A stretch of DNA of 64,000 nt, taken from the NCBI GenBank assembly GCA_951406725.2, contig OX597833.1, forward strand, positions 53,444,001 through 53,508,000, read 5' to 3'. The position numbers and the translations under genes were made by a program. The notes under the pieces were generated by a model. The model saw nothing but the letters and a program-made list of their open reading frames with translations. It was not told the DNA's origin and did no database searches. This stretch comes from Octopus vulgaris (Eukaryota). This document shows positions 11,050-25,976 of the stretch, piece after piece. How positions within the stretch are numbered: position 1 is the stretch's first letter; each line of letters starts with the position of its first letter.

Positions 11050-11214
11050 TATCTCAACTTAAAAAGAAGAAGCAAATCGACAAGGAAGTTGAATACCCTG
11101 TTGCATATGGACGCTGGATGAAACCCAAATGCCTGGTGTATGCAAAGTTTGACTTTCTGTGCATCGACGCAACAGTGTTTTCCACCAAACATCCAGACAG
11201 AGCTGAAGAACTTG
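11050..11214 (+). CDS. Internal coding exon of retropepsin-like aspartic protease gene (SQLKKKKQIDKEVEYPVAYGRWMKPKCLVYAKFDFLCIDATVFSTKHPDRAEEL)
   Basis: Acceptor ttttacag at 11042-11049, donor g|gtaagt at 11215. 165 nt, phase 1-1, open and non-repetitive. Phase matches the next exon (G+AA=Glu). Confidence 0.8.
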
Positions 11215-11335
11215 GTAAGTTAATTAGAACAGCTCACTTTGGCTTAGTACGTGGGTATGGACATGTGCGTGCATGTGTGCGTGTACATGTATTTTGTGTA
11301 TATGTGTGTATGTATATATATATATATATATATAT

Positions 11336-11536
11336 CAGTGCTTTTCAAACTTTTTGCTGGAGCGGAACCCCAAGGAAACATTCCACTGGCTCAAGGAACC
11401 CCTGTGCAATAATTTAATAGTCTTATGCACACATTTCTGCACAGGAGAATTAAAAATTACTGCCGATTTTAGCAGTTTTGTAACTTCTTGCGGAACCCCT
11501 GGACTGTACTCGCAGAACCCTGGTTGAAAAGCACTG
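11336..11536. mobile_element. Second copy of the same hAT MITE, opposite orientation
   Basis: TIR cagtgcttttcaa / ttgaaaagcactg, inserted in (TA)n. Confidence 0.85.
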
Positions 11537-11655
11537 ATATATATATATATATATATATATATAAAGGGAAAGTTTACGAAAATAAATAAAAGACGAAGGC
11601 AGGTGGTGTACAAAACAAACAGATGTATTAGTATAGCGCTCAGGAATAGAAAAAG

Positions 11656-11693
11656 TCTTTTACGTTTCGAGCCTACGCTCTTCGACAGAAAGA
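11656..11693 (-). ncRNA. Minimal hammerhead-like motif with CUGUCGA core (related copies at 7364-7399 -, 18433-18470 -, 40122-40157 +, 47674-47709 -)
   Basis: Minus strand reads UCUUU CUGUCGA A GAGC GUAG GCUC GAA ACGU A AAAGA. Confidence 0.55.
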
Positions 11694-21510: not shown

Positions 21511-21680
21511 AATTTATGGTTGATTCTGGCAGCGATGTGGTGACGCTGAGGAAAGACATTGTCGAAAAGCTCGACTTGAAACTACTGGGACACGTTCGCA
21601 GCAAAGGAGTTCACGTATCAATGCACAAAACCCTTTATGAAGCCAAGCTTAAGCTCGGATCAGTTGAACTTAAAATTGAG
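21511..21680 (+). CDS. Catalytic exon of retropepsin-like (clan AA) aspartic protease (EFMVDSGSDVVTLRKDIVEKLDLKLLGHVRSKGVHVSMHKTLYEAKLKLGSVELKIE)
   Basis: Acceptor tttttcttccctag, donor gag|gtaaga. 170 nt, phase 1 to 0. Contains the hydrophobic-D-S-G-S active-site motif followed by the typical helix/flap pattern. Confidence 0.88.
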
Positions 21681-22711
21681 GTAAGATATTTTTGGCCTTT
21701 TTTGTTACATCATCATCATCGTCGTCGTCGTTTAACGTCCGCTTTCCATGCTAGCATGGGTTGGACAGTTCGACTGGGGTCTGGGAAGCCAGGAGGCTGC
21801 ACCAGGTCCAGTCTGATCTGGCAGTGTTTCTACTGCTGGATGCCCTTCTTAACACCAACCACTCCGTGAGTGTAGTGGGTGTTTTTTACGTGCCACCGGC
21901 ACAGGTGCCTGGGGAGTCTGGCAACGGCCACGATCGGTTGGTGCTTTTTACGTGCCACCGGCATGGAGGCCAGTCGGGGCGGCGCTGGCAATGGTCACGA
22001 TGGGATGGTGCTTTTTATGTGCCACCGGCTCTGGTATCACAACTACAATTTCCATTGATTTTTGAGCGATTTCGAATGAGCGATTACGAATGGGCAAAAC
22101 TTCAAATAAGATGCCATTTTAGATATTCGTTTATTCTTTTACTTGTTTCAGTCACTTCACTGCGACCATGCTGGAGCACCGCCTTTTTAGTCAAAGAAAT
22201 CGACCCCAGGACTTATTCTCCTTTAGGCTGTTACTTTTTCTATTGGTTTCTTTTGCAGAATCGCAAAGATAGTATAAAAAATAGTCATACTTTGTTGACA
22301 GTATATAAATAATACTTACTTAATATTTACGACTAATAATACGTTAATTAGCTGGCCTTCCATTGGTTATGATGATGAGGGTTCCAGTTGATCCAATCAG
22401 CAGAACAGTCTGCATGTGAAATTAACATGCATGTGGCTGAGCACTCCACAGACACACGTATCCTTAATGTAGTTCTCAGGGACATTCAGCGTGACACACA
22501 GTGTGACAAGGCAGGCTCTTTTGAAATACAGTTACAACTCATTTTTACAACTCATTTTCCAGTGGACTGGAAAAATGTGAAATAAAATGTTTCGCTTAAG
22601 GATACAGCGCATTGGCAGGAATTGAACTTACAACCTTATGATCATGAGCTGAATACCATAACCACTAAGCCACGCGTCTTCACTACGCTATGCTAATATT
22701 AATATTAATAT

Positions 22712-23153
22712 AAGGTGGCGAGCTGGCAGAATTGTTAGCATGCTGGGCAAAATGTTTAGTGGTATTTTGTCTGCCGTTACGTTCTGAGTTCAAATTCCGC
22801 CGAGGTTAACTTTGCTTTTCATCCTTTCGGGGTCGATTAAATATGTACCAATTACGCACTGGACCCCGAAAGGATGAAAGGCAAAGTCGACCTTGGCGGA
22901 ATTTGAACTCAGAACATAACGGCAGACGAAATACCTATTTCTTTACTACCCACAAGGGGTTAAACACAGAGAGGACAAACAAGGACAGACAAACGGATTA
23001 AGTCGATTACATCGACCCCAGTGCGTAACTGGTACTTAATTTATCAACCCCGAAAGGATGAAAGGCAAAGTCGACCTCGGCGGAATTTGAACTCATAACG
23101 TAACGGCAGACGAAATACGACTTAGCTAACGTTTCTGCCAGCTCGCCACCTTA
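22712..23153. mobile_element. Inverted pair/trimer of SINE family B forming a long foldback
   Basis: + copy 22712-22860 abuts - copies 22863-23153. The ends aaggtggcgagctggcag / ctgccagctcgccacctt are complementary. Confidence 0.8.
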
Positions 23154-25418
23154 TGCCTGAGTATATAATGCTATGGTAATTTGAATGCATTGAGCTGAAA
23201 AACAAACATCAAGGGGGAAAAAAACGATCTGTTTCTTTTCCATGATATATTGTGTATTCTAATACACAATGATAGCTACATCTCATGTCGGTCATTTATT
23301 AAATACATGTTTAACTAAATTAATATGCTGCCTCTGTATCTGATTATTTATATTAAATAATGTATTTACAGTAAACGCTAATCAATTCATATATGTATAA
23401 TGAAATATCTCGCAATTTATTACCTATTAAAAATAATATAATATAATAAAGGTGATGCGGAAACGAATTCAATAATATATTTCCATATGTTTATATATGA
23501 ATAAAAAAACAATGAATTATTTCGGGTCAATAAAGTGTCTGCAGTGATCAGAGTGAAGGGAGGTAACTTGCAATATTGCGCTCTTTTCTAGGTTTTTGGC
23601 GCAGTGGATGGGTGGTCGTGTCGTTTCATGGTTACTATTGTTGTATGTGTAGCCCCCAGGTCAGCCCCAACTCAGCTGGCCCATGATCAAGACATTCCAG
23701 CCATGACCACCCCATTTTGTTGTCTATCTAGCACCAGACTGAAAGAAACAGCCAAACGATATGTTGTGTGTGTTTAAGTGTATATTCTTTCTTTCTTTCT
23801 TTTCTTTTGCTTGTTTCAGTCAGTTGACTGCGGCCATGCTGGAGCACCGCCTTTAGTCGAGCAAATCGACCCCGGGACTTATTCTTTGTAAGCCCAGTAC
23901 TTATTCTATCAGTCTCTTTTGCTGAACTGCCAAGTGACGGGGACGTAAACACACCAGCATCGGTTCTCAAGCAATGCTAGGGAGACAAACACAGACACAC
24001 AAACATACACACACATACATATATATATATATATATACATATATACGACAGGCTTTTTTCACTTTCCGTCTACCAAATCCACTCACAAGGCACTGGTCGG
24101 CCCGGGGCTATAGTAGAAGACACTTGCCCAAGATGCCACGCAGTGGGACTGAACTCGGAACCATGTGGTTGGTTAGCAAGCTACTTACCACACAGCCATT
24201 CCTGCACCTATAATACTGATTTCACATTTTGGCATTAGGCCAGCAATTTCGAGCCCCAGGGAATGGGTATGGGGTGGGTAAGTCGATTACATTGACCCCA
24301 GTGCTCAGCTGGTACTTACTTGCTACCTCAACCCCGAAAGGGACGAAAGACAAAGTCGACCTCAGCAGAATTAGAACCCAGAACATAAAAAAAAACGGAC
24401 AACATCTCACTCAACATTTTTGCCCAACATGCTAACGACTCTGCCAGCTTGCAGCCTTAAGTGTGTATATAATATTCATGTTGACTTATACAGCCATCAA
24501 TCCTTTTTCTCTTCCGACTATTATTGGGAAGGACATGGGGTAGAGCTAGGGGAAATACCTCGGGCATCTTCTTCACAAGGTCCTGTACATTTGTTTGCTA
24601 CTTTTTACTCTTTTACTTGTTTCAGTCATTTGACTGCGGCCATGCTGGAGCACCACCTTTAGTCGAGCAAATCGAACCCAGGACTTATTCTTTGTAAGCC
24701 TAGTACTTATTCTATCGGTCTCTTTTGCCGAACCGCTAAGTTACGGGGACGTAAACACACCAGCATCGGTTGTCAAGTGATGTTGGGGGGGGGGGACACA
24801 ACCACAGACACACAAACATATACACACACATACATATATATATATATACGACGAGCTTCTTTCAGTTTCTGTCTACCAAATCCACTCGCAAGGCTTTGGT
24901 CGGCCCGAGGCTATAGTAGAAGACACTTGCCCAAAGTGCCACGCAGTAGGAATGAACCCGGAACCATACCATGTGGTTGGTAAGCAAGCTACTTACCACG
25001 CAGCCACTCCTGCTAGCTAATTTCTGAGAAATTTCATTCACTAGGTAGATGCCACTGATGATCTCCTGTAATATTTCCATTTCTTTTCTTCATCAGTTGT
25101 TAGTTGTCGGAGCACTGCATCCTTCAAAACTTCTATGCTTTCTGAGATTCGCCAACACTACACCTGATTCTCTCCCCTCCATACACACACAAGCATGTAT
25201 CTGACTCATACACTGTTCGCTTTCCAGACATTTGTACATTACTGCATATACTTTACAAGCACTTTCTGACAAGTTGTGGTGCACCTGAGCACGGTATACA
25301 ATAATTTCATTATTATTATTATTATATTTTAAAATATATTGTGTTTATAAGTGTGCACATAATAATATTCACATTGATGTATACAATGTATCCTATTTTT
25401 TTCTTTTTTTTTTTCTAG

Positions 25419-25976
25419 GTTATTTCTGAGGAATATAATTCACTAGGGAACCGTGTGTTTCGCTGCTTCCGTCACTACATCAGTGGTTCTCGGCACATTT
25501 GGCTCAAGGGAGATTATGTTGACCCTTCGATGCAATGTGAGCCAAGCGGAAACTACAGCCAGAAAGACAGAGAGTCGGACGAGGAGAATAACCAAATATC
25601 TGTGATGAAACCAACCGATTCAAAACCGAACGGTTGTCCTTTAGACGAAGTGGTCAGCAACACAGAAGAGGCCAAATCTAAAGCAGACCAAACGGAAGAT
25701 GATGAAGCACAAAGATTAGATCATATAGCATCACAAGACATTGACAACCAAACAAAACAAAACTATACAGAGGGTGATGAACTGGCTGAGTATTCCGAAT
25801 CAGTTCAAGAGAAATACAAGACTCCGAAACGCTCTCGGAAGTTAAGGCCCCTGTGTGGCAGCAAACTGAAAAGAGATCGAAAGTCTAGGAAAAGAAAACG
25901 TAATTTGTTTACCAACGAAGAACCAAGTCGAAAGAAAGCTTGCGGGAAACTCACATACGACACAGTTGTTTCATGA
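25419..25976 (+). CDS. Terminal coding exon: end of protease domain (VISEEYNSLGNRVFRCF) plus acidic and basic C-terminal tail
   Basis: Long polypyrimidine tract ending ttttctag at 25418. Phase 0, 186 codons to TGA. SLGNRVF occupies the position of the retropepsin hydrophobic-hydrophobic-G motif. Confidence 0.85.
   Translation, partial: VISEEYNSLGNRVFRCFRHYISGSRHIWLKGDYVDPSMQCEPSGNYSQKDRESDEENNQISVMKPTDSKPNGCPLDEVVSNTEEAKSKADQTEDDEAQRLDHIASQDIDNQTKQNYTEGDELAEYSESVQEKYKTPKRSRKLRPLCGSKLKRDRKSRKRKRNLFTNEEPSRKKACGKLTYDTVVS

Follow-up and report, generated by a model that had tools for sequence, protein, structure and literature searches.

An animal family of predicted SAM-retropepsin proteins revealed by a protease gene of the octopus

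What kind of protein carries the single retropepsin-like aspartic protease domain encoded in a 64,000-nt stretch of the Octopus vulgaris genome (contig OX597833.1, positions 53,444,001–53,508,000; hereafter the window, numbered from its first letter), and what might control such an enzyme? A first-pass annotation had described three phase-compatible exons, separated by introns of 10 kb and 3.7 kb and encoding a stand-alone, possibly nuclear protease of what may be an uncharacterised animal family. The exon structure is borne out: the exons have AG/GT ends and join in compatible phase without an internal stop, the introns measure 10,296 and 3,738 nt, and the product equals residues 96–391 of the O. 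vulgaris gene model P0001 (CAI9737824.1). The peptides quoted, the Asp-Ser-Gly (DSG) motif and the basic tail were all located, RAEELEF only across a splice. P0001 does not provide independent support for splicing, because the same assembly is probably its source. What did not hold is that the protease stands alone. The first of the three exons is internal, opening in phase 1 and lacking a start codon; therefore, the gene extends upstream and an upstream exon is needed. Neither tblastn nor the family profile detected SAM exons in the window and, therefore, the upstream intron must be longer than 11 kb. In the family to which the octopus protein belongs, the protease is preceded by tandem SAM domains.

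P0001 contains a SAM domain at residues 39–99, whereas its residues 1–38 fail to align with relatives and probably stand in for a missed first SAM exon. The domain order in the family is SAM-SAM-retropepsin-variable tail. The precomputed SAM family is recorded for 33 of 36 matches, SAM_1 was found in 33 of the 34 proteins scanned, and SAM was likewise detected in each of the 12 distant animal-type members scanned, which range from sponge to amphioxus. Asp_protease_2 was detected at E≤0.05 in nine of these 12, with the sponge proteins and that of Nematostella exceeding its cut-off. Mean column conservation in an alignment of 46 members was highest for the protease (0.62), followed by SAM2 (0.57), SAM1 (0.49) and the tail (0.13). 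Database labels wrongly describe several members (P0001, P0030, P0031, P0033, P0040, P0189, P0023 and P0025) as ANKS1A-like or ANP32E-like. The label of P0001, 'repeat and SAM domain-containing 1A', presumably derives from the likeness of its SAM domain to those of ANKS1A and ANKS1B. ANKS1A and ANKS1B carry ankyrin repeats and a PTB domain; ankyrin, PTB and SH3 families were absent from every member scanned, and the ANKS1A label is a misannotation.

Searches seeded with the protease region of P0005, a relative of the octopus protein, resulted in 36 proteins from 126 candidates. The species concerned are cephalopods, bivalves, gastropods, a chiton, the brachiopod Lingula, echinoderms and hemichordates. 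When 1.84 billion representatives were searched with a profile, 174 matches at E≤0.001 resulted, of which 150 are listed; individual look-ups of 30 proteins added nemerteans, a crinoid, Branchiostoma and two Oscarella sponges. Cnidarian members are present in Actinia, Actinostola, Nematostella, Exaiptasia, Desmophyllum and Paramuricea. There was no vertebrate, tunicate, arthropod, nematode or annelid among the named matches, most profile matches carrying no name, and a further homology search, confined to a divergent alignment and longer proteins, found nothing among 8,000 crowded candidates, which is weak evidence. The distribution suggests lineage losses of the family. A repeat protein of 2,694 aa (P0050) was discarded as a chance match.

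The alignment was restricted to the 46 near-full-length members; fragments and partial or exon-missing models were left out (P0002, P0003, P0009, P0015, P0023, P0028, P0030, P0034-36, P0049, P0052, P0055, P0059 and P0070), as were two further Branchiostoma hybrids, one duplicate, P0050 and the short protein P0168 discussed below. A maximum-likelihood tree of the SAM and protease region supported molluscs (100/98), lophotrochozoans (96/91), echinoderms (100/97) and Branchiostoma (100/100), with the cnidarians split into two long-branched groups and the root placed by midpoint only. At least two sets of paralogues seem to be present in cnidarians. The tree broadly tracks animal phylogeny, as would be expected of a vertically inherited host gene.

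The intron positions point in the same direction. The models of O. bimaculoides (P0003) and Saccoglossus (P0036), as well as P0070, pass from the end of SAM2 directly to the exon beginning with FMVD; therefore, the same two introns are marked in a protostome and a deuterostome. The symmetric 165-nt exon missing from these three unrelated models corresponds to positions 11050–11214 of the window, and its absence is due to faulty models or to exon skipping in an isoform that they share. Such an isoform, if real, would be without the opening strands of the protease and would lose some of the predicted dimer interface. Among the profile matches listed, 88 of the 138 new ones span the share of a single exon (43 exon 2, 30 exon 3 and 15 exon 1), which is what gene callers would produce on genomic contigs if the intron positions were shared, with the caveat that match starts at profile positions 35–45 can also stem from the Met of MVDSG. 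Six relatives (P0004, P0005, P0012, P0016, P0018 and P0029) are whole on Logan contigs of 1.6–2.3 kb, which are most simply explained as spliced transcripts.

The motifs of the domain were compared with those of known retropepsins. The octopus sequence MVDSGS matches the retropepsin motif hydrophobic-hydrophobic-Asp-Thr/Ser-Gly-Ser/Thr/Ala (PMC4140852). All 46 aligned members keep the catalytic-type Asp; D-[ST]-G, as well as D-[ST]-G-S, occurs in 45 of them. Further downstream, retropepsins possess a hydrophobic-hydrophobic-Gly psi-loop motif (PMC11313796), at the position of which all 46 members display [STC]-[ILV]-G, the Gly and the preceding hydrophobic residue always being kept, whereas the first residue departs from the motif. 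PF13650 was the top family for all 12 domains scanned. The single-DSG clan AA assignment made from the window is thus upheld, the motif being present in the octopus DNA and a retropepsin fold being predicted for P0005.

A first, low-confidence AlphaFold2 (AF2) model, based on 12 sequences, reached a predicted local distance difference test score (pLDDT) of 73; it had no Foldseek match at E≤0.001, and VIA left APRc of Rickettsia (8.6), the protease of equine infectious anaemia virus (EIAV; 8.3) and Ddi1 (7.8) tied. In the full-length model of P0005, based on 46 sequences, both SAM domains and the protease mostly had pLDDT of 93–98, with a disordered tail. The best fold match of this model was to APRc (Z 10.9, root-mean-square deviation (rmsd) 4.1, 118 aligned positions; Foldseek to 5c9f, E 1.5e-4), followed by the proteases of EIAV (Z 9.7, rmsd 3.0, 99 aligned) and simian foamy virus (Z 9.2, rmsd 2.7, 89 aligned) and by Toxoplasma Ddi1 (Z 8.8, rmsd 3.0, 101 aligned). 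The protease part is therefore predicted to adopt a retropepsin fold, with one lobe per chain.

The first-pass annotation had called for a homodimer check, and the P0005 domain passed it as a prediction, scoring 0.78 as compared with 0.02 for the best of three controls, with contact agreement of at least 88% and pLDDT of at least 80 in the dimer runs. The mark applied was attained by 21 of 30 solved microbial pairs, none of 23 single chains and seven of 16 animal pairs. The nearest contacts were Ser45-Ser45, Asp44-Asp44 and strand 114–119, with residues 44–46 meeting across the dimer, a pattern equal to the 'fireman's grip' arrangement (PMC11313796). The predicted homodimer would thus form through the DSG loops and the C-terminal strands.

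Retropepsins require two monomers (PMC4140852), and the foamy-virus protease is an inactive monomer before induced dimerisation (PMC3112707). A single-Asp protease needs two chains and, therefore, its control lies with whatever joins them. The SAM tandem is the sole other conserved part of the protein. The closest tandem SAM sequences in the PDB are those of ANKS1B and Caskin (E 1.9e-6 to 1e-4). Helices 1–4 are net negative in SAM1 of 45 of 45 members and in SAM2 of 43 of 45 (P0001 was excluded from the count because its SAM1 is missing); helix 5 of SAM2 is net positive in all 45, with a nearly invariant GHRK-like motif, and that of SAM1 is inconsistent in charge (23 positive, 15 negative). 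This pattern fits an assembly between an acidic mid-loop and a basic end-helix, as described for the Caskin and SARM1 tandems (PMC9499636). In tankyrase, activation is brought about by SAM filaments (PMC9712121).

By analogy with tankyrase, we propose that SAM oligomerisation gates dimerisation of the protease, a reading to which we assign a probability of roughly one half. The SAM pair would self-associate head to tail, the assembly would bring two protease halves together, pairing their half-active sites in the predicted active dimer, and the latter would cut an intracellular protein or the SAM-retropepsin protein itself. We infer that the protein is catalytically active, that its SAM domains oligomerise and that the oligomer gates the protease.

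Several observations weigh against this proposal. The structure models were built on P0005, which is 74% identical in the domain, and not on the octopus protein. The dimer score may reflect memory of solved retropepsins, because like complexes have been solved, and since the dimer was predicted without the SAM domains, a constitutive dimer fits equally well. The charge pattern is common in SAM domains of this kind and also serves in binding the SAM domains of other proteins; moreover, the helix-5 stretch counted in SAM2 contains a basic patch resembling a nuclear localization signal (NLS), which inflates its charge. The ANKS1B SAM pair is an intramolecular complex (PMC9499636). On the protease side, the domain encoded in the window scores 21.9 against a Pfam cut-off of 24.3. 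The first psi-loop residue is Ser (41 members), Thr (4) or Cys (1) instead of a hydrophobic one. The Gly of the DSG motif is missing in some distant relatives (DSA in P0051 of Actinia, DTL in P0127), and among the profile matches listed, four have DSA, one DTA and one DSR. The distant members in which DSG is replaced by DSA, DTL or DSR (P0051, P0059, P0122, P0127 and P0167) are possibly inactive offshoots.

The alternative that survives best is that the protease is a constitutive dimer and that the SAM tandem targets it, by binding a different SAM protein that is either substrate or scaffold. DDI proteins reach their substrates via accessory domains. It is in keeping with this alternative that the isolated domain is predicted to dimerise and that the nearest SAM domains (ANKS1B, SAMD5, Caskin and Eph-binding ones) form heterotypic complexes (PMC9499636). 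However, acidic and basic surfaces are both conserved on one chain, permitting self-association, and we regard targeting as a serious though doubtful explanation. It is improbable that the family consists of pseudoproteases, in which the retropepsin fold would do no more than dimerise or bind peptides on behalf of a SAM scaffold. The non-canonical first psi-loop residue, the loss of the Gly in a few distant members and the retropepsin-like fold of a mitoribosome subunit (7ane_ao), which the fold search also returned, would all suit such a role, whereas retention of the Asp in every aligned member and of D-[ST]-G in all but one, from sponge to mollusc, would not.

A single-domain nuclear protease, as originally pictured, is very unlikely: its stand-alone nature is already contradicted by the internal first exon and by the SAM domains of the octopus model and of 33 of 36 relatives. 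The part of the claim that concerns the nucleus survives weakly, as a possible location in bilaterians. The tail contains NLS-like patterns in 25 of 46 members, and the end of SAM2 does so in 22, counts obtained with no chance control and from long tails that yield such patterns easily. The tail measures 0–17 residues in eight cnidarian, sponge and allied rows of the alignment and, in the octopus protein, is identical to that of O. bimaculoides at 122 of 149 positions and to that of P0005 at 32 of 149; the corresponding figures for the protease core are 87 and 70 of 92. The tail is thus, on the evidence of the alignment, a lineage-variable add-on. Should the bilaterian proteins be nuclear, the patch following SAM2 (positions 11061–11072) would be a better candidate signal than the tail. 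The chance that the domain is a remnant or recent capture of a long terminal repeat (LTR) retroelement or retrovirus is similarly slight, in spite of the weak likeness to the foamy-virus protease (profile match E 0.016; Spuma_A9PTase in six of 12 domains at E≤1), since spliceosomal introns divide the domain, the tree tracks host phylogeny, the viral contigs scanned hold no relative, and the window contains neither gag nor integrase and only one reverse-transcriptase fragment, 20 kb away. A recent origin is already contradicted by these findings, in agreement with the first-pass annotation; very old domestication is a possible origin of the family.

We searched for relatives outside the family as well. 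The clearest was P0168, a 122-aa 'predicted aspartyl protease' from the Joint Genome Institute (E 2.4e-5; hhalign 96.7%); the 150 matches listed include no other clear protease that lies outside the family. TIGR03698 was detected in three of 12 domains at E≤0.1 (best E 0.0092, its cut-off not being reached) and in none of the three window exons. In the ESM Atlas, the protease part matched bacterial, archaeal and phage Asp_protease_2 clusters at 0.91–0.92 with 120–138 shared features, which serves as a lead only; a query comprising SAM and protease produced no usable match. Prokaryotic genomes yielded 29 pattern matches, two of which passed tblastn with equal match statistics (L001 and L002). 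In L002, FMVDSGSD lies inside a 390-aa lipoprotein-like open reading frame (ORF) without other likeness and was set aside as chance; a plasmid match (E 0.7) sits on a Ku gene and was discarded. None of the 20 pattern matches in viral contigs is a relative, and PADLOC matched none of the five proteins submitted to it. By sequence comparison, there is no close prokaryotic or viral relative within the collections scanned. The resemblance to prokaryotic proteases noted earlier is therefore upheld in part: P0168 and the TIGR03698 matches speak for it, whereas the best TIGR03698 value is modest and foamy-virus matches are similarly strong. The sequences point weakly to prokaryotic single-domain proteases as the nearest outside relatives, with the foamy-virus protease about equally close.

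The locus is arranged on the forward strand as follows. The internal coding exon at 11050–11214 (165 nt, phase 1-1) matches P0001 exactly (residues 96–150) and encodes the end of SAM2 helix 5, a linker and, according to the P0005 model, the first two protease strands. The NLS-like patch, a putative signal, is KKKK at the end of helix 5; many relatives carry LRKRRR-like residues in its place. The first intron (11215–21510, GT..AG) abounds in microsatellites and dispersed repeats. The second exon (21511–21680, 170 nt, phase 1-0, AG..GT) encodes the core of the retropepsin-like domain and matches Asp_protease_2 with E 0.00029, under the curated cut-off. It contains the catalytic-type Asp-Ser-Gly motif inside MVDSGS (21522–21530), as well as SKGVH (21600–21614), the predicted flap region, where most members have S-x-G-[VI]-H and the role is suggested by the fold. 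The second intron (21681–25418, GT..AG) is followed by the last coding exon (25419–25976), which has an AG acceptor and ends with TGA at 25974–25976. This exon encodes, in order, the psi-loop position Ser-Leu-Gly (25440–25448), the C-terminal dimer strand (RCFRHYISG..HIWL), a disordered acidic tail and the basic C-terminus; the dimer strand and the disorder (pLDDT mostly <50) were read from models of P0005. The Lys/Arg-rich, NLS-like segment of the tail (KRSRKLR ... KLKRDRKSRKRKR) lies at 25827–25901, and its position is not conserved outside Octopus.

Self-repeats cover 62% of the window and none of the three exons. Upstream, the O. sinensis model P0002 has a false N-terminus where the SAM exons should be, drawn from positions 8263–8513, part of which it uses twice; this N-terminus, which has a repeated segment and no SAM domain, was rejected as a gene-model error. 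Just past the stop codon, nested tandem repeats with units of 28, 129, 157 and 204 bp occupy 26115–26838 and 27200–27821; they may lie in the 3' untranslated region, because the first AATAAA past the stop is only at 27044. When the 74 non-repeat ORFs of the window were scanned against Pfam at E≤0.001, two matched: a weak reverse-transcriptase fragment and a PRC2 EED insertion model, the latter below its cut-off. The fragment (82 codons, 46214–46459 on the forward strand; RVT_1 E 0.00061, below the cut-off) lies 20 kb downstream, has no link to the protease gene and is probably a decayed non-LTR element; the 74 ORFs included neither a linked gag nor a linked integrase. Two satellites are found further downstream, one of 163 bp (13 copies, 98% matches, 50915–53053) and one of 93 bp (23.5 copies, 99% matches, 61812–64000), the latter readable on the minus strand as a long repeat ORF.

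The view that the animal family is uncharacterised is consistent with the literature searched, in which no description of a SAM plus retropepsin protein turned up, subscription journals, InterPro, MEROPS and supplements lying outside the search, and most papers being covered through the start of their abstract. The main text of a paper on amphioxus domain combinations (PMC2575513) does not contain 'aspart'; its supplementary architecture tables could list the pairing. The pan-animal SAM-retropepsin family is thus probably unreported. To our knowledge, host-encoded retropepsin-type proteases of animals are few, comprising DDI1/2, NRIP2/3, ASPRV1 and domesticated retroelement genes. To these would be added a separate host family common to sponges, cnidarians and both bilaterian branches, which databases have concealed behind 'uncharacterized' or ANKS1A labels. 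Because the active site needs two chains, fusion to an oligomerising module offers a direct, testable mechanism of activation, and the orthologues of Nematostella, sea urchin and amphioxus allow it to be tested now. A bolder and rather unlikely extension is that a SAM-polymer platform activates the retropepsin as a caspase-like induced-proximity switch, as old as animals, which would act in the immunity or cell death of most invertebrate phyla, would descend from a prokaryotic single-domain protease and would have escaped notice because of its loss in vertebrates, flies and nematodes.

Among known systems, DDI1/DDI2, NRIP2/3 and ASPRV1 are host-encoded single-lobe proteases. The DDI proteins share with the SAM-retropepsin family a host-encoded single lobe, accessory N-terminal domains and a predicted dimer sheet formed by C-terminal strands. 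DDI1 and DDI2 carry an N-terminal ubiquitin-like domain, whereas the N-terminus of the family is a tandem of SAM domains, and Pfam scans found no ubiquitin-like domain; one protein of 34 had a weak UBA_3 match (E 0.0087). The DDI-type Asp_protease family (PF09668, which we take to be the DDI-type protease profile) was absent from the 34 proteins at E≤0.01 and from the 12 domains at E≤1. The family motif is MVDSGSD, and its profile matched the Ddi1-type chain 7efy with E 0.38. The earlier view that this is not a DDI protein can therefore be retained.

APRc (RC1339) provides the best fold match, and, together with prokaryotic single-domain clan AA proteases (TIGR03698, PF13650), it displays the same hydrophobic-hydrophobic-D-[ST]-G-[STA] motif (PMC4140852). 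However, these proteins are only 16–18% identical to the octopus-type family, TIGR03698 is recognised in only three of the 12 domains, and APRc has N-terminal membrane helices where the SAM-retropepsin family has tandem SAM domains and introns. The foamy-virus protease (Spuma_A9PTase) is alike in its DSG motif and in a His-containing flap (GVH in the family, TIHG in the virus); unlike it, the SAM-retropepsin protein is encoded without reverse-transcriptase fusion by a host gene with introns, and the match is not significant. ANKS1A/ANKS1B and Caskin supply the nearest SAM sequences. The enzymes of tankyrase and SARM1 are a PARP and a TIR NADase, respectively, their ankyrin or ARM sensor is not seen in the family, and SAM assembly in the family is putative; what the SAM-retropepsin proteins would share with them is the attachment of an enzyme to SAM domains that form filaments or rings (PMC9712121, PMC9499636).

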